Shown: piece after piece, positions 2,161 through 44,621 of the stretch
Position numbering within the stretch: position 1 is the stretch's first letter
How the letters are laid out: each line of letters begins with the position of its first letter
Assembly (NCBI GenBank): GCA_016184005.1
Contig: JACPDL010000003.1
Span: forward strand, 17,839 to 81,838
Direction of reading: 5' to 3'
From: Candidatus Aenigmatarchaeota archaeon
GTDB lineage: Archaea > Aenigmatarchaeota > Aenigmatarchaeia > GW2011-AR5
DNA length: 64,000 bases
Program-made: the position numbers and the translations under genes
Notes under the pieces: model-generated
Seen by the model: the letters and a program-made list of their open reading frames with translations, nothing else
The model's database searches: none
Told to the model about the DNA's origin: nothing

Positions 2161-3399
2161 ATGTCCGAACACGATGAAAACGTAGCAGCACACGTAGAAG
2201 AAATTATAGAGTCAGCTTCTAAACCTACTTCTGAAGCTGCTGTAGAGCCTGTCATTGATGCAAATCCTGCTCCAGCTGCTGCTCCGTTGCAAGAACACAC
2301 AGTTGATCATATTATAGCATCTGCTTCGAAGCCTGTTGCGCCGCCGATTGCAAGAAGGGGCGTAAGCTTTGACAACGTCATTGATTTTGAAGCCCACAAG
2401 GCGCGGATCGCAATTTTTGGCTGCGGAGGCGCTGGGAATAATACCGTCACGGCACTGACTGAAAAGGGCATAGATGGCGCATCGACGGTTGCAATAAACA
2501 CGGACGCAAAGCACCTTTACGTGAGCAAAGCACACAAGAAAGTGCTCATAGGAAAGAACCTGACACAAGGATTGGGTGCAGGCGGTTATCCGGAGGTAGG
2601 CAAAAACGCAGCACTTGAGAGCAAAGGAGAGCTCAGGGAATTGCTCAAAGGCGTTGATCTTGTTTTCATCACATGCGGCCTTGGAGGCGGTACAGGAACG
2701 GGTGCAGCCCCTGTCGTTGCACGGATTGCACGCGAAACAGGCGCAATTGTCATAGCAGCCGTGACGCTTCCATTCAAGCTGGAAGGCGCAAGAATTATCA
2801 AGGCAGAAGAAGGCCTTGTCAATCTGCGGCAGGCTTGTGACACGGTCATAGTCATAGAAAACCAGAGACTTCTGGAAATTGCAAAGGACATGCCTCTTAA
2901 GAAAGCGTTTGCAGTCGCTGATGATCTCATAGCCACGATGATAAAGGGCATATCAGAGACAATATCCCAGCCGTCCTTGGTAAACCTGGATTACGCAGAC
3001 GTAAAGGCGATAATGCATTCAAGCGGAGGGGTTGCTTCCATAGGTTTCGGAGAAAGCGATGGCGAAGACAGGGCATTTGAATGCATAAACAAGGCACTGA
3101 ACCATCCGCTGCTTGATGTCGATTACAACGGAGCGACAGGCGCACTTGTACAGGTTATCGGCGGCAACGACATGAGGCTGGATGAAATCAACCGCATAGG
3201 CGAAGTCGTGCAGGAACACCTCTCGCATGATGCGCAAGTAATCTGGGGCGCCCGTGTCCTGCCAGAACTACAGGGCAAGATCCAGGTCATAACCATAATT
3301 ACAGGCGTTAAATCACCATACATCCTTGGCCCTTTGTCCAGGGACGAGAAATCAAAAGTCAAGAAATCCCGGGAGCTCGGGATCGAGATAATAAAATAA
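2161..3399 (+). CDS. ftsZ: Cell division protein FtsZ
   Basis: GCGGAGNN, GLGGGTGTG tubulin signature, NLDYADV; acidic Pro/Ala-rich N-terminal extension. Confidence 0.97.
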   Translation: MSEHDENVAAHVEEIIESASKPTSEAAVEPVIDANPAPAAAPLQEHTVDHIIASASKPVAPPIARRGVSFDNVIDFEAHKARIAIFGCGGAGNNTVTALTEKGIDGASTVAINTDAKHLYVSKAHKKVLIGKNLTQGLGAGGYPEVGKNAALESKGELRELLKGVDLVFITCGLGGGTGTGAAPVVARIARETGAIVIAAVTLPFKLEGARIIKAEEGLVNLRQACDTVIVIENQRLLEIAKDMPLKKAFAVADDLIATMIKGISETISQPSLVNLDYADVKAIMHSSGGVASIGFGESDGEDRAFECINKALNHPLLDVDYNGATGALVQVIGGNDMRLDEINRIGEVVQEHLSHDAQVIWGARVLPELQGKIQVITIITGVKSPYILGPLSRDEKSKVKKSRELGIEIIK

Positions 3400-17500: not shown

Positions 17501-18774
17501 GAATTTACCGGCACGAAAATGCTGTGGATTTTGCCAATGTTTGATATGGTTCCTGATATCGTGTTGTTTATCTCGCCGAAAATCCGCGAAACATCTATCC
17601 TTCCAGCACCTTTGTCGCTTGTCTTCGAAAAATTCCCGTTGAGATCAAGAGCAGAGTTCATCATTATCGCCTTGACTTCTGCAGGGGTAAGATTGTCCCT
17701 AGCTTGCAGCATTAAAGCGGCTATACCTGCAATATGGGGCGTAGACATGCTGGTGCCGCTTTTCTGCACGAAATCGTCCTGGGTTTCCCACCTGCTGTTT
17801 GCAGAGGCTATCGGGTTGCCGGGGGCGAGAACATCGGGCTTTATCCTGCTGTCGTCTGTGGGTCCCCTGCTCGAGAAACCGCTGACGGCATCCCGTGTTG
17901 TGCTGCCTTTTCCCGTGTCCGTGGAACCGACAGTTATGACCTTGTGCGCCAGTCCGGGCGAGCAGATGGAAAATGAGTTGCCTGTTGAATCAATTGTCCT
18001 GCAATTATCTTCACCGCTAGGTCCGCTATTACCAGCAGCTACAGTCACAACCTTGCCTTTGTCTGCTATATTGTCAAGATAAGATGAAAGCACGTCGCTC
18101 CCGTCAGCAGGAATCTCACGCCCGCCTAAACTCAGTGTAAGTATGTGCGCCCCGTTGTCAACGCACCAGTCTACGCCGCGTAATATATCCGTATCTAAGC
18201 AGCGTCCAGCGTCGTCGCACACCTTTGCGTTCAGTATGCCTGCGCCGAAAGCCACGCCGCGGAAAACAGCGTCATTTCCGGCAGCTATTCCAGCCACATG
18301 CGTGCCGTGGCCGTAGATGTCCTGCGGGTTGCCGCCGCCCGTAAAGTCGGCTTCGTTCACGACCCTGTCTGCAAGCGACGGGTGCGTTTTATCCACGCCA
18401 GTATCAAGAACGCATATCCTTATGCCTGAACCGTTGTAGCCTGTACCCCACGCCGTTGATGCATTTATTATTGGAACAGATACATCGAGCAGTATCTTCT
18501 TTTCCCCGTTGGCCCATACCTTCTCGACAACAGGATCATTTTCAAGGGCATTAAGCATGCTTTTCCTTATTCTGGCTGTGTAAAAATTTGTTTGCCTGAA
18601 CTGTTTGACGTTCTCAGCGCCCTCAATATTGTAGTTATCGTCCGCCTTGACGATTACTGTAACCTTGTCATCCTGTGACTCGTATAACGCGGGGTCTATT
18701 TTTTGAGTACTGGCCGAATAGGACAAAGCAGCAAGTAATAGAAACAGGCATAAAAATGCGGCTAATATTCTCAT
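14533..18774 (-). CDS. Secreted, membrane-anchored S8 subtilisin-like protease with Ig-like repeats
   Basis: Signal peptide; LDTG, HGTHVAG, GTSMSTPH triad; many N-x-S/T sites; C-terminal TM. Confidence 0.93.
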   Translation of the reverse strand: MRILAAFLCLFLLLAALSYSASTQKIDPALYESQDDKVTVIVKADDNYNIEGAENVKQFRQTNFYTARIRKSMLNALENDPVVEKVWANGEKKILLDVSVPIINASTAWGTGYNGSGIRICVLDTGVDKTHPSLADRVVNEADFTGGGNPQDIYGHGTHVAGIAAGNDAVFRGVAFGAGILNAKVCDDAGRCLDTDILRGVDWCVDNGAHILTLSLGGREIPADGSDVLSSYLDNIADKGKVVTVAAGNSGPSGEDNCRTIDSTGNSFSICSPGLAHKVITVGSTDTGKGSTTRDAVSGFSSRGPTDDSRIKPDVLAPGNPIASANSRWETQDDFVQKSGTSMSTPHIAGIAALMLQARDNLTPAEVKAIMMNSALDLNGNFSKTSDKGAGRIDVSRIFGEINNTISGTISNIGKIHSIFVPVNSSEIRATVYWSENYSVHQNLDLQLLDPSGAIVKSSASVLQTEEMIKVTNPVSGYWNILVLPTTVSGSAKYSIASNFLPFGEVFFTNNTLGGISYYRINTTNNSLLSMSIGWIDNASIQLGLYNTSGNSVFSTSRTNHINVSINASAGMWTARLVPSSLSANTAYNITSSFTLSDKFVDNISPSVDLTGPVNNSFLNKNNIIVNFTAIDDLNLEQECSRNLNGTKINLGNATSGVQNSYILNLSDGTYPLNVTCSDQSRNNATSQTVIFTIDTVKPTISIVSADVNNSFVSRNYIFINVSVSDLTNISACILEWNGTNQTMVKLNNGTLVSCTANKTADDGTYNYRIHANDSAGNTATETLNITLDTRPPVILALSPANNTFMRGLNENFSLSYSEMHLRRANLYWGAAQNFTNTSMACLSGTRNCSILINLTSLQHNTTISFYFETTDLAGNTANSFMMSASIDRIPPDAGFVSPTPLNGTTHETSRITINMTASEPLSSAVLELNFVNESMSGGGKEWAKTLDLSDGNYTLKAYLADLAGNFNATQEVLVFIKARENVTSYFGSLSASLSARNITMTFLETDNEISVSALDAAKNYTLRFNLTGTLIEIVDFNLSALNLSNMMGIADDIEGAGSVSSAFSQSGGVFGSLAWVDMNGALPENSYAAKITFPQVYAIYFYLNGTRDAPDITRIESACNADFTNKPCYNMTTNASVLYLPSFSGAAAGNDTQAPNVTITSPVASTTYASSSIPLNYTASDNIAADGCVYRLNNDSNVSLIGCTNTTITASQGSNTLVLYANDTSGNEIKNTIAFTFTPPASPSPSASGGGYSGGGGGARPAPQAKPNLTNASLSNATPNVAHKSAANITGNGAPATNKTNVMPASQALANETAAEKNQTGVIGPTGLVAASPTSLAVAGVVILAGMLVFFRLKKKPKRKIRKKQKGVILGEAKLLRDLRKNKVFSRFQNALHFENSKKLRFLRKYRYRRHS
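14559..14666 (+). mobile_element. Family D element, 108 nt (one 54-nt twin hairpin nested in another), in frame in the protease tail
   Basis: Four triloop hairpins; outer pair identical to 24664-24717. Confidence 0.85.
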
Positions 18775-38031: not shown

Positions 38032-40308
38032 TTATGCGCAAATACCCCAGCCGCACTCTACGCAGGTGACGCAGCCTTCCTTGTGCTCGACAGCGCCTGT
38101 GCAGCTCGGACATTCGGTCACTGTGTGCTTGTTTACTGCGCCGCCTACTGGAACACGTATCATCGGCTTCTCTATTGCTTCGATAGGGATAGCCAGTTCT
38201 TGTTCCTTCTTCTCTTCCTTTGCCAGATGCAGGACTTCCTTCACTCTTGAGCCGCTCCTGTAGACTGTCAATGACTTGCAGCCAAGCTGCCAGCCGAGGA
38301 TGTACGCATCGCTCACGTCTTCTTTCGTAGCGTCGTTAGGGAAGTTGCATGTTTTTGATATGCTGTTGTCTATGTTCTTTTGGAATGCAGCCTGCATCCT
38401 TACATGGTCCTCGGGCCTGATGTCAAGCGCAACTACAAAGATTTTCTTCAGGTCTTCCGGGAGATCAATGCCCTGTACGCTTCCATGCTCCTCTACCTGC
38501 TTCATGATTTCATCTGAATAAAGCCCGCGGTCTTTCAACGCTTTCTCGAGGTGCCGGTTCAGGTAGGAAAGCGACTGGCCGCCCATTATGTTTGATTTCC
38601 TGTAGGCAAGGGCGAAATAAGGTTCTATTCCGCTTGCGCAGTCACATATCATGCTTATTGATCCAGTGGGCTGCACTGTTGTCAGCGCCGCGTTCCGCAT
38701 CTTTATGCCCTGCCGTCCATAGATGCTTTGCTTCCAGTTAGGAAAGCTGCCCTTCTCTTCTGCAAGCTCACTGGACATTTCATGCGCCGCGTCGTTAATG
38801 AATTTTACAACCTTCTCGGCTGTGTCGAAACCTTCTTGCGTGTCATAGCCTATGCCCAACCGTATCAGCATATCAGCAAAACCCATTACGCCAAGGCCGA
38901 TTCTTCTGTTACTTCTGAAGGTCTTGTTCACCTTTTCTACAGGAAAGTCTGTAAGGTCTATTACATTGTCAAGCATTCTTACTGAATGACGCGTAACGTA
39001 TCTGAGCCTCTCCCAGTCTACCTGGCCATCTTTAACGAATTTGTCAAGGTTTATGGATCCGAGATTGCACACGTCGCCGTCGTGGAGAAATTGTTCGCCG
39101 CACGGATTGCAGGCCTCTATAGGTCCAAGCTGTGGCAGGGGGTTTGTCTTGTTCACGTTGTCTATAAAGATTACTCCAGGCTCCCCGTTGTTCCACGCAG
39201 CACCTATTATCTCTTCCATTATTTCCCTTGCTGTCATGGTCTCTTCTTTTATGTCAAGCACTGTTCCGTATTCGTCTCTAATGATCCTTCGTGGTTTCAT
39301 CTCCATTCCACGCCATTCGCACATCCAGGGCGAAGGCGCGTTGTTCATGACTTTCTCCATGAAGCCGTCTGTAAGCGCGACTGAGATGTTGAAATTCCTT
39401 ATGTCTCCTTCACGTGCCTTGCAATGAATGAACTCCAGCACGTCAGGGTGCGTGACTTTCATGACAGCCATGTTTGCTCCATGCCTGCCCTGCTGTTTGA
39501 TAACTCCAAAGGACGCATCATAAACGCGCAGGAAAGATACAGGACCGGACGCTACCCCGCGCGAGCGTACAGCGCGCCTGCCAGCCGGCCTAAGCAAATG
39601 GAATGGGAATCCAAGACCAGAACCGGCCTGTTGCAGCAAGCATGCTTCCTTGAGCGTCTCAAAAATGTCGTCCATGCTGTCTTCCATGTGCAGCACGATG
39701 CAATTGGAAACAAGCCTGGTGGGTGCTCCTGCATTTGTGAGTGTCCTTCCTGCTGGAAGGAATTCCAGACTGCTCATGACTTCCCTGAATTCCTGCTGAA
39801 GCTTAGAAATCTTTTTCTGGTTGGCGCCATATTTCTTCTCCACTGTAGCTAGCGCTTTAGCTACGCGCTCAAACATCTCTTCAGGCGATTCAAGCACGTT
39901 GCCGTCATTGTCTTGTATAAGATATCGTCCTGCAAGAACACGCAATGCATTCAAACTAAGATCCTTGTACATTCTTGTGAAGCGGCCGCCTAGTATCCTC
40001 TTGGCTTCGTCCCTGATCTTCATCCTTTCCTGCCTATAAATTATATAGTGCTTTGCTGTCAAGGCGTGGCCGTTATCGATGAGTACCTTTTCAACAACGT
40101 CCTGGACTTCCTCAACAGTAGGAATATAATTGCGCTGCTTTGATGCCCTGTTCTCAAGAACCTTGATAACCTTCTCGGCCAGTTCTTCTGCGAGTTTAAT
40201 GTCCTTGCCCCCGACAGACTGAGCCGCCGAGAATATAGCCCCAACTATCTTTCTCTTGTTAAAGGCCACCATTTTTCCGTCTCTTTTCATTATCTCCTTT
40301 GTCTTCAT
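38032..40308 (-). CDS. nrdJ: Class II (adenosylcobalamin-dependent) ribonucleotide reductase with ATP cone
   Basis: ATP cone KRDG; SNC, GRHGANM, NPCGEQ, CNLGSINL, PTGSIS, ISKTCN; C-terminal Cys cluster; no NrdB nearby. Confidence 0.93.
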   Translation of the reverse strand: MKTKEIMKRDGKMVAFNKRKIVGAIFSAAQSVGGKDIKLAEELAEKVIKVLENRASKQRNYIPTVEEVQDVVEKVLIDNGHALTAKHYIIYRQERMKIRDEAKRILGGRFTRMYKDLSLNALRVLAGRYLIQDNDGNVLESPEEMFERVAKALATVEKKYGANQKKISKLQQEFREVMSSLEFLPAGRTLTNAGAPTRLVSNCIVLHMEDSMDDIFETLKEACLLQQAGSGLGFPFHLLRPAGRRAVRSRGVASGPVSFLRVYDASFGVIKQQGRHGANMAVMKVTHPDVLEFIHCKAREGDIRNFNISVALTDGFMEKVMNNAPSPWMCEWRGMEMKPRRIIRDEYGTVLDIKEETMTAREIMEEIIGAAWNNGEPGVIFIDNVNKTNPLPQLGPIEACNPCGEQFLHDGDVCNLGSINLDKFVKDGQVDWERLRYVTRHSVRMLDNVIDLTDFPVEKVNKTFRSNRRIGLGVMGFADMLIRLGIGYDTQEGFDTAEKVVKFINDAAHEMSSELAEEKGSFPNWKQSIYGRQGIKMRNAALTTVQPTGSISMICDCASGIEPYFALAYRKSNIMGGQSLSYLNRHLEKALKDRGLYSDEIMKQVEEHGSVQGIDLPEDLKKIFVVALDIRPEDHVRMQAAFQKNIDNSISKTCNFPNDATKEDVSDAYILGWQLGCKSLTVYRSGSRVKEVLHLAKEEKKEQELAIPIEAIEKPMIRVPVGGAVNKHTVTECPSCTGAVEHKEGCVTCVECGWGICA

Positions 40309-40344
40309 GCCTTCCACCCCTCATATTTTATTGCCTTGATCTTG

Positions 40345-40530: not shown

Positions 40531-40974
40531 TCAGCTGACCCTTTTCAGCAGCCTCACTTCTTTCTCAAAGGCCGATATGTCGCCGAACGCCCTGTAAACT
40601 GACGCAAAACGAATGTATGCAACCTTGTCGATGTGCTTGAGTTTCTCCATGAGAATCTCGCCTACTGTCTGGCTTTGGATTTCTGCGCCATAGCTGCGTA
40701 GTTCGGCTTCTACGTCGTTAACTGTCTTCTCGATTGTTTCCTGGCTGACAGGCCTTTTCTCGCATGCTTTCAGCACGCCGCTGAGAAGCTTCTGCCTGTC
40801 GAATCTTTCCCTTCTGCCATCTTTCTTGATGATTATGATGTTGACTTCAGGCCTCTCGTATGTTGTGAATCTCTTGATGCATGAAAGGCACTGCCTCCTT
40901 CGGCGCGTTGTCTCCTCGCTGTCACGCTTGTCAGTGACTTTCGTCTCTTTGTACCCGCAGAAGGCGCATTTCAT
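40531..40974 (-). CDS. nrdR: Transcriptional repressor NrdR
   Basis: CAFC...RRRRQC..C..RFTTYE, ATP cone, VAYIRFASVY. Confidence 0.96.
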   Translation of the reverse strand: MKCAFCGYKETKVTDKRDSEETTRRRRQCLSCIKRFTTYERPEVNIIIIKKDGRRERFDRQKLLSGVLKACEKRPVSQETIEKTVNDVEAELRSYGAEIQSQTVGEILMEKLKHIDKVAYIRFASVYRAFGDISAFEKEVRLLKRVS

Positions 40975-40987
40975 GAGGAACACCAAT

Positions 40988-42734: not shown

Positions 42735-43046
42735 TCCCAAACCACCCCGTTTTATCAAGACAAAACTAATCTGCTTTTCTGTCAGCTGCAGCGAAATGAA
42801 GCCTGCATAATGCTATCGTGATGCCGCTCAGACTTGCGAGAAAAGTTGCGTCTTTTTTGCATGCAATACAGTTCATCAAAACCACTGGTTAACTATATGC
42901 AGCGCGTTTAATAGTGGTTTTGGTACAAAGCTCGAAAACTAGTGCAAAAATTGAAACTTCGCATTCCACTGTTTTCTGGTATTAACGGAATAGTTACTAA
43001 GCAGTAACTTCCAGGATTAAATACTTTGCTATCATAGTTGATTTCT

Positions 43047-43736
43047 ATGACATACGCAGAAATTGAGACAATGCAGAAACAGGCAAAAATATTATTCGAG
43101 CCAAGCGGATGGGCACTGTCTTATCAAAAGCTGCACGACCAGACGGATGTCTCTGGCTGGGAAATGTTTCTCTTGGAAAGCCATGATAATTTCAACAACC
43201 CTTTTGCCCAAGCGATGCAAAGCTTATACACAAATAAAGGCTGGTTCGGATTAATTCTTAGAGACGTTATCAGAGACGGCGGAACAGGCACGGATGACAA
43301 AGGAAGGCTGCACTTGACTTATGTTTCTCACGCGGGCACAGAATGGGAACAAGCACATGACATAAAAGCTCCAAAGAATGGTTTTTACGTGCCAAACGAC
43401 GATTGTGAAACAATAAACGGAGTGGTTGTGCCTTTCCAGCCCGGAACAATAGTTCCTTTCGAGACTGTGAAAAGCAAAAAAGAAGCAGTGAAAAGATTTG
43501 AAAAACACGGACTTGATCCAGAATACGTATCTCGTGCTCATAGATTAGACAGCTATAAAGATGATCCGCGGTTCGCTGGTCGCGACTTCGGCCCCGGCCT
43601 CGACGTCGACGGCCGCTTCGACGCGGGTTTCGTCGGGCGCCCTTCCTGCTCCGGCTTTGGCTGGATTGCCTCTCTTCCAGCTTATAGAGAACAGGAACTT
43701 GTGATGAGAGTTCGCGCTATCAAAGAAAAACGATAA
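43047..43736 (+). CDS. Hypothetical protein with a DGR-target-like C-terminal variable region
   Basis: 14 consecutive NNC codons at 43581-43622; GRDF..DGRFDA..RPS. Confidence 0.7.
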   Translation: MTYAEIETMQKQAKILFEPSGWALSYQKLHDQTDVSGWEMFLLESHDNFNNPFAQAMQSLYTNKGWFGLILRDVIRDGGTGTDDKGRLHLTYVSHAGTEWEQAHDIKAPKNGFYVPNDDCETINGVVVPFQPGTIVPFETVKSKKEAVKRFEKHGLDPEYVSRAHRLDSYKDDPRFAGRDFGPGLDVDGRFDAGFVGRPSCSGFGWIASLPAYREQELVMRVRAIKEKR

Positions 43737-43778
43737 AGCAAGTATAAATTATCCGCAACGGCATCTTCAACTGAACAT

Positions 43779-44621
43779 TTACACAAGCGATATGAAGAAA
43801 AAGATTCCTGCAACAGCATAGGCAGCCATAAGCCTGGGATAACTTTTCTCGACATTCTTCATCTTTCTGTGCTCGAGATAGATTATTGCGCCGGTCGCTA
43901 ACGCAAACCACGCAAAATAATTCAAAAATCCCGCCAGTGCAAGATAAGCTATTGTAGCCCCTGCAAGAAGCACAAAAATCTTTGAGAGGGCCACCATTTT
44001 CTTCAGCCCTAAACGGGTTGAAGTTGTTCTAACCCTGCCCTTTTTGTCGTCGTCAATGTCTCTTACCTGCAATAAGATATGCCCGCTTGATGCTACAAGA
44101 AACGGGATTAAACCTAATGTATGCATGTTCAATGTTATTTCTTTTCCTGCGGCGAGTGCGACAATGTAAAAAGGCAGCGTGCCGTAGCCCAGACCGTTCC
44201 ATATAGTCTCTAAATAAGGCCTTTCCTTGATGCGCAGCGGCCGCGCCGAGTATGCGATTATCATGAAATCAGAGAATAAGACAAGATAGAAGACTGCCGC
44301 CGGTAAAAAAACGTAAGCAACAGCCGCAGGCATGATCATTAGGATTATGCTGGTTGCCAGGGCTGTTCCTTTGGAAACCTTTCCGCTTGCAACAGGAAAC
44401 CTGTAAATCTGCCTGCTCTTCCTGTCGCTTTCGTAATCGCAGTAATGGTTGAATGTGATGCTTGCCGAGCAGACCATGATGAAAACCGGCACCAACAGCA
44501 TGTAGGGCAGCGAGAGCGGTGCGTCGATGGCGAGGAACGCAATGAGATAAATTCCAAGCACGAAAATTGACACGTTTGGACGCAGGAGATGGTTTAAGTC
44601 GGTGGGGTTCATGATTATCAT
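43779..44621 (-). CDS. UbiA family prenyltransferase
   Basis: NHYCDYESDR, YS..P.RIK, RDIDDDKKG. Confidence 0.9.
   Translation of the reverse strand: MIIMNPTDLNHLLRPNVSIFVLGIYLIAFLAIDAPLSLPYMLLVPVFIMVCSASITFNHYCDYESDRKSRQIYRFPVASGKVSKGTALATSIILMIMPAAVAYVFLPAAVFYLVLFSDFMIIAYSARPLRIKERPYLETIWNGLGYGTLPFYIVALAAGKEITLNMHTLGLIPFLVASSGHILLQVRDIDDDKKGRVRTTSTRLGLKKMVALSKIFVLLAGATIAYLALAGFLNYFAWFALATGAIIYLEHRKMKNVEKSYPRLMAAYAVAGIFFFISLV

Follow-up and report, generated by a model that had tools for sequence, protein, structure and literature searches.

The gene considered here lies within a 64,000-nt stretch of DNA (the window; positions 17,839 to 81,838 of contig JACPDL010000003.1) from a Candidatus Aenigmatarchaeota archaeon, whose genome assembly (G000) comprises 919,184 bases in 5 contigs and is 93.9% complete, ~6% being missing. 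A program-called ORF opens with a TTG at 43038 and extends to 43736 on the forward strand; the likely start, shared with the homologues, is the ATG at 43047, giving a gene at 43047-43736 (+) that encodes 229 aa and whose product is predicted to be a single-domain protein with a C-type-lectin fold. Its neighbours encode NrdR, a winged-helix regulator, a membrane protein, UbiA, and a HAD hydrolase, and these neighbours are common to 0/25 other loci of the same gene family. The NrdR-type repressor (40531-40986, -) carries a Zn ribbon and an ATP-cone (Pfam E values 1e-14 and 2e-20) and stands beside a large gene (38032-40317, -) that we take to be a ribonucleotide reductase; NrdR is mostly a bacterial regulator.

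Toward its 3' end the gene changes composition abruptly. The 109 nt at 43570-43678 (+), corresponding to residues 178-214 of the 232 encoded by the program-called ORF, contain 41 C, 35 G, 28 T, and 5 A (~70% GC) in a genome of 44.7% GC. When GC content is taken in 100-nt windows it reaches a maximum of 0.68 at 43550-43649, between flanks of ~0.37-0.48, and is back to 0.42 afterward; over the tract as a whole it is 0.69, against 0.43 for the remainder of the gene. Stretches with at most 5 A per 109 nt account for 79 of the 1,837,288 strand-windows of the 919-kb genome and fall in 6 places, among which GC is at least 70% only at 43570-43678. Inside the tract, 43581-43622 (+) is an unbroken run of 14 NNC codons, translated in the frame of ORF 43038-43736 (+) as RDFGPGLDVDGRFD, then AGFVGRPSCSGFGWIASL. 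Runs of at least 12 NNC codons, counted in six frames, occur in 5 places genome-wide; all four others were inspected and rejected as variable regions, being non-coding or antisense frames of low-complexity DNA. The initial annotation had pointed to an abrupt GC-rich, A-poor patch near the 3' end of the gene and to 14 consecutive NNC codons encoding these peptides, and had read them as the variable region (VR) of a diversity-generating retroelement (DGR) target. The patch is borne out by the GC profile and by the count of 5 A in 109 nt, the codon run is exact, and the boundaries were placed correctly within ~4 nt per end.

The same annotation had regarded the gene as an ORFan, which it is not. 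A protein search returned 22 proteins including the window's own (E values 1e-156 to 3e-26), that is, 21 homologues, all of which align over the full length and one of which carries the source name Aenigmarchaeota. A profile of the 22 proteins has matches in 29 of the phylum's 371 genomes, including 16 of the 43 that belong to the window's family, and a Pfam search with the window protein gave no family. The alignment consists of ~180 well-conserved N-terminal residues followed by a fixed scaffold interleaved with hypervariable positions; the scaffold motifs run in the order RF-G-R-F-P, GRF, PS-SG, and VAS-PAY, and between them nearly every sequence differs. Four family contigs, L013 (G193:C36), L075, L078, and L077, break off within the gene near residues 116-150, before the VR is reached; these contig ends hint weakly that the populations sampled there are heterogeneous in the 3' part of the gene.

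A relative provides the DGR cassette against which the tract can be read. On contig C2 of genome G173 a 237-aa homologue, an intergenic repeat (the template repeat, TR), and a 351-aa reverse transcriptase (RT) follow one another on one strand. The RT matches the RVT_1 profile at 2.9e-24, and its translation contains an I-G-x-x-x-S-Q stretch that we take to be typical of DGR RTs. Four collinear segments of the repeat, with three inserts between them, match the 3' end of the target gene; with these inserts left out of the comparison, TR and VR are 109 nt each. Of the 23 TR adenines 13 are changed in the VR, whereas the 86 other sites are all identical, which is the defining DGR pattern. The initial annotation had proposed a search for a copy differing only at adenines beside an RT gene; a TR and an RT do stand next to a homologue in a related genome. 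A 360-aa LAGLIDADG_3 protein with a C-terminal HTH is encoded directly downstream of the G173 RT (L055, 4768-5850, minus) and may be relevant to cassette mobility. A distant homologue on contig C36 of G172 likewise adjoins a TR and an RT.

The window tract at 43570-43678 runs collinear with its TR/VR counterpart in the G173 cassette, and differs from the G173 TR mostly at TR adenines: 20 of the 23 adenines differ as against 16 of the 86 other sites (Fisher p=2e-9), or, by TR base, A 20/23, C 3/36, G 9/30, and T 4/20. Overall identity between the window protein and the G173 homologue is only ~31%. When ten other family members were compared with the G173 TR in the same way, p was below 0.01 in seven and 0.2-0.35 in three (L010, L009, and L017). 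The 16 differences at the 86 non-adenine sites mean that the window's own template, if ever present, was different from the G173 TR.

Codon alignments carry the same signature. Under the G173 TR, the run of 14 NNC codons resolves into scaffold codons (TTC, GGC, CGC) alternating with codons that stand opposite AAC, GAC, or ATC of the template. Its two clearest instances in an alignment of 12 family genes are residues 199-200 (43632-43637, +), where the G173 TR codons are AAC and AGG, respectively. Column 199 is NNC in 12/12 homologues (H1 1.63, H2 1.28, H3 0.00, fraction C 1.00), and in column 200 the third base is nearly fixed and never C (H1 1.78, H2 0.82, H3 0.41, fraction C 0.00), the codon being NGG in the window gene and most homologues. 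In pairwise comparisons among family members 52-65% of the predicted adenine sites differ, against 10-29% of the other sites of the tract. This hypervariability among homologues, with its NNC and NGG signatures and its divergence at adenine sites, supports the reading of the tract as a DGR variable region.

Outside the adenine sites, the tract is conserved beyond what its gene would predict. Third positions compared between the window and G173 differ at 7 of 36 non-A sites within the tract vs 109 of 172 elsewhere in the gene (p=1.7e-6), and the lower divergence in the tract has the same direction in most of 28 pairs. Against the homologue of a same-genus genome, G189, the corresponding values are 8/34 in the tract and 58/175 in the remaining gene, a divergence compatible with a tract that became frozen around the separation of the two species or after it. 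A GC island is seen in eight homologues, with the tract at 0.61-0.74 and the rest of the gene at 0.38-0.48; L010, L014, L017, and L011 have little or no GC contrast in the tract region, as expected of older, ameliorated, or never-targeted copies. Given the codon signatures and the tract-wide conservation, the island is best read as a cDNA-derived tract with the composition of its template rather than that of its gene. The homology between TR and VR in G173 ends at the equivalent of 43658-43678 (+), which corresponds to the last segment of the G173 TR, encodes part of a conserved W/G-(V/I)-A-S-(L/R)-P motif, and is nearly invariant in the eight GC-rich homologues; it is a putative IMH.

An AlphaFold model computed from the 22-sequence alignment (pLDDT 89.4, pTM 0.87; pLDDT below 50 only at residues 188-190) resembles the C-type-lectin DGR variable proteins that the initial annotation had anticipated. 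In an exhaustive VIA-align search a DGR variable protein, 5vf4_A, ranked first, with 170 residues aligned at Z 6.7 and rmsd 4.1; the fourth match was 5ioo_B, a C-type-lectin variable protein of Nanoarchaeota (Z 5.9, 144 residues aligned), and TvpA (2y3c) was recovered at Z 4.1; all structural Z values are below 8, so that single matches are weak and the support is moderate. C-type lectin domains make up most of the other rows listed, the remainder including FGE-like and EgtB-type proteins, and it is this uniformity of the list, rather than any single match, that supports the lectin fold. Foldseek with the same model against the PDB gave no match (best E 0.11), and when the PDB sequences were searched with a profile no relevant match came up (best E 0.15). 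The previously unannotated Aenigmarchaeota family is now assigned to the lectin-fold DGR targets.

Neither a TR nor an RT was visible in the window, as the initial annotation had said, and this holds across the whole of G000. The RVT_1 profile had 0 matches in that genome, tblastn with the G173 RT reached a best E of 4.8, and blastn with 43500-43740 found the query itself and chance matches of 15-19 nt, with no second copy. G000 was further scanned for a TR with mismatches forgiven at every genomic A, the queries being the entire tract, each half of it, and four segments, and only A-rich noise came back; as a positive control, the same kind of scan recovers the G173 TR, and it gave nothing in 12 other family loci. 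RTs are present in 16 of 70 genomes of the order, and none was found in the two same-genus genomes or in the genomes of the closest homologues (G203, G164, and G195). Of 16 genomes with a clear family member (E <1e-20), 6 have an RT somewhere and 10 have none, and 0/9 metagenome family loci include one in flanks of up to 10 kb. Viral contigs scanned with the window protein yielded one tblastn-positive stretch and no usable locus, in a search from which own-genome records were possibly excluded, and a scan of viral contigs with the G173 RT yielded none.

Among the 14 genomes of the order with a completeness of 90% or more, none has an RT, vs 16 of 70 overall. Four RT contigs, L059, L060, L061, and L070 (from G202, G201, G182, and G211, respectively), end within ~500-750 nt upstream of the RT start, where a VR would be expected. 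Assembly may break at hypervariable regions and leave cassettes under-represented in good bins. Of what marks a complete DGR, an RT and a TR differing essentially only at adenines, G000 has neither; of what marks a DGR target, it has a 3' VR with fixed third bases, substitutions concentrated at TR adenines (a comparison that relies on the TR of the related genome G173), homologues linked to cassettes, and a predicted C-type-lectin fold. With TR and RT beside the homologue of a relative and neither in G000, the suggestion in the initial annotation of a remote or abandoned target is supported.

The stretch that contains the tract is present in six groundwater runs of two studies. In four of these runs (2017 and 2020, two studies) 43000-43800 is spanned by a single contig per run, identical to the window, with word depths between 7.6 and 403. 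Contigs of this sort, which may stem from the samples of the assembly itself, would not show rare variants. Of the read-level variation that the initial annotation had put forward as a check, none was seen in the four contigs. Contig pieces of 35-40 nt on 43581-43637 were rejected as VR variants, having 3-8 differences and unrelated flanks, and were taken for GC-rich DNA of other organisms.

In the same-genus genome G189 a segment of ~820 nt (42957-43778), made up of the gene and short flanks, is replaced by a spacer. Homology between the window and contig C43 of G189 ends near 42956 and restarts near 43779, the spacer being ~95 nt (about 3199-3294), and G189 has its own copy of the gene on a separate contig (C8), at 79% nucleotide identity and over the ORF only. 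An empty site together with a copy on another contig shows that the gene is an accessory, relocating unit. Since the gap from its stop codon to the end of UbiA is only 42 nt, no remnant of a former TR-RT module lies downstream. Contig C6 of G188 (L081, 1-122), from a very close relative with 96% identity in the left flank, runs out in mini-hairpin repeats a short way beyond the left breakpoint, and these repeats are multicopy in the window's genome (e.g., G000:C4 near 427207, 434460, and 436146); on the presence of the gene this contig was set aside as uninformative.

We consider it probable that the tract is a real DGR variable region, orphaned in G000 and apparently frozen. By analogy with the related cassette, a TR would be transcribed and copied by the DGR RT with randomization of its adenines, and the resulting cDNA would replace the end of the gene. 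The window tract would thus have been written by mutagenic retrohoming from a lineage-specific template, as the window gene and its same-genus homologue have non-adenine states in common that are unlike the G173 TR. Writing by a retroelement would account for the tract's own GC-rich composition, for its depletion in A, and for the change of AAC, AAT, and AGG into NNC, NNT, and NGG. No search turned up a TR or RT belonging to this VR itself, and we infer retrohoming into the window gene from the family's only cassette, which is that of a distant homologue. The VR would make up the surface with which a small protein with a C-type-lectin fold binds its ligand, at the C-terminal end. Judging from the lack of TR and RT, the cassette would then have been lost, or the gene would have arrived already diversified and without it, and with the site empty in the sister species as well, the allele would now be frozen and evolving as an ordinary gene.

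The strongest competitor, itself unlikely, is that the tract is a live remote target whose VR is still rewritten in trans, from the unassembled ~6% of the genome, from a plasmid or virus, or from unbinned contigs. RTs more than 100 kb away and trans action of avd-TR-RT have been documented (Wu et al., 2017; PMC5758913), and the synonymous sites of the window tract are still TR-like. The RT contigs of relatives often end upstream of the RT and none of the 14 most complete genomes has one, so cassettes may be systematically missing from bins. Against a tract that is still being rewritten stands an identical allele in contigs of four runs of 2017 and 2020 at depths up to 403, its VR unbroken in the contigs. 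Nor did the adenine-tolerant scan find a TR in 919 kb, or the RT searches an RT in G000, in the two same-genus genomes or at the nine metagenome family loci, and the two scans of viral contigs gave no usable locus.

It is very improbable that the retroelement acted in another genome altogether, only the 3' end of the gene having been recombined or converted from a DGR-bearing relative, which would make the tract a DGR product never rewritten in its own gene. Such an import would be in keeping with the abrupt change of composition at both ends of the tract and with an exchange-prone locus, the family gene being non-syntenic in every genome and its site empty in the sister species. However, nothing sets import apart from cassette loss, the boundaries of the tract coincide with the TR/VR boundaries of G173, as retrohoming predicts, and the lineage-specific non-adenine states that the G189 copy has in common with the window argue for a template shared within the lineage and against a single import event. 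Diversifying selection of the ordinary kind on a lectin surface, in a lineage that had no retroelement, with the GC patch as a protein-level or compositional accident, would suit the lack of TR and RT in G000 and its closest relatives, the frequent variability of lectin-fold binding surfaces, and the low GC contrast of L010, L014, L017, and L011, but is hardly credible, because point mutation would not fix a third base while positions 1 and 2 are randomized (column 199), would leave unexplained why synonymous sites are three times more conserved in the tract than in the remaining gene, and would have to place the variable positions on the TR adenines of another genome (p=2e-9).

The templates of the related cassettes, which lie outside the window, have a further property. 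When VR and TR were aligned with splicing allowed for nine of the order's cassettes (L063, which contains N's, was left out), eight of the nine TRs were seen to hold 1-3 inserts each, 17-58 nt in length and missing from the VR, for a total of 19; the loci are L055 (G173:C2, 6974-7184, minus), L056, L058, L062, L064, L067, L068, and L071, and the 119-nt TR of L069 is uninterrupted. The blocks that flank the inserts differ from the VR almost only at adenines, with 21 adenine and 0 other differences in G172. A spliced alignment of family VRs with whole RT loci of the same genome was also tried and was dropped as too permissive, its scores of 120-166 on either strand being noise.

The geometry of the inserts is that of the archaeal bulge-helix-bulge (BHB) splice motif, a 4-bp helix with two 3-nt bulges that hold the junctions. 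In the 16 inserts formally tested (7 loci), exon nucleotides -6 to -3 pair opposite insert nucleotides -6 to -3 at one VR-compatible junction, and the three inserts of L058 were examined by eye alone. At least three of the four helix pairs form in 16/16 inserts and all four in 7, with both junctions in 3-nt bulges, compared with a mean of 2.2/16 and a maximum of 8/16 for random 4-mers of the same region (2000 trials). The register control is biased in that the junction was picked among VR-compatible shifts. An inner hairpin of at least 4 bp follows directly after the first bulge in 15 of the 16. When the G173 TR is folded with RNAfold, the motif reappears at inserts 1 and 3 (MFE -69.9 kcal/mol, z -2.26). 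The 58-nt insert is single-copy in the G173 genome, which speaks against its being a multicopy mini-hairpin element. A loose BHB scanner has a background of ~21 matches per kb and is unspecific alone. In 11 of 17 RT loci the third insert is found again, ~85-100 nt ahead of the RT start, with five different yet complementary helix sequences and a hairpin sequence that differs between loci, save for one pair alike. The splicing endonuclease family PF01974 was present in all five genomes tested. The inserts may be spliced from the TR RNA or skipped by the RT.

BHB introns of 11-129 nt have been described (Yoshihisa, 2014; PMC4090602), and the inserts have the same 4-bp helix, two 3-nt bulges, and inner hairpin. 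Unlike BHB introns, they lie in the template of a retroelement rather than in tRNA or rRNA, and their outer helix is weak in most. A literature search of full texts gave no account of interrupted DGR templates or of a link between DGRs and BHB motifs; differences in length between TR and VR have been noted in 25 of 372 DGRs, where they were ascribed to slippage at AAC (Wu et al., 2017; PMC5758913). The related cassettes constitute independent examples of BHB-split templates and, if these are spliced, would tie host tRNA-splicing enzymes to retroelement-guided protein diversification.

A broader and speculative scenario, to which we would give some but no great credence, is a hit-and-run in which cassettes move between genomes with or toward resident lectin-fold genes, rewrite the 109-nt tract, and then vanish, so that cells without an RT keep freshly diversified but frozen receptors. 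Support for it comes from the template-like synonymous sites of the tract (7/36 vs 109/172), the empty site in G189, and the 10 of 16 family-bearing genomes without an RT. The BHB-type inserts in the templates of such cassettes would, in this scenario, need to be removed or skipped before the template is copied.

DGR surveys start from the RT, and VRs left behind after the loss of a cassette therefore go uncounted. An orphan VR is nevertheless recognizable from sequence alone, through a composition island, fixed third bases, and divergence from the template of a relative at adenine sites. The probable orphan in the window suggests that these reduced symbionts carry the machinery for diversification only patchily and for a time, while its products persist.

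In comparison with known systems, the window protein is of the same fold class as TaqVP (5vf4), AvpA of Nanoarchaeota (5ioo), and TvpA (2y3c), at Z values of 6.7, 5.9, and 4.1, respectively, and like AvpA it is small and single-domain. With the solved DGR variable proteins it shares the C-terminal placement of the variable residues and the codon logic of AAC to NNC; it differs from them in having no detectable sequence similarity and in having neither TR nor RT in its own genome. Remote targets of the Treponema DGR type likewise lie at a distance from the RT, with a scaffold like that of their cassette-linked relatives, and are defined by a TR elsewhere in their own genome whose differences are confined to adenines (Wu et al., 2017; PMC5758913). 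In this last respect the window VR is unlike them, as no TR was found in 919 kb, and it is accordingly to be regarded as an orphan rather than a remote target. The DGRs described from DPANN archaea come from the same host group and from the same groundwater habitat, and in common with the window case have small targets without database homologues and, in the window's case among its relatives, an RT of the DGR clade (Paul et al., 2015; PMC4372165). In the portions of that study drawn on here the TR/VR pairs adjoin an RT, and orphan VRs and TR inserts are unmentioned. The DGR is thus a kind of system already known, of which the window case is a genuine, apparently retired example.
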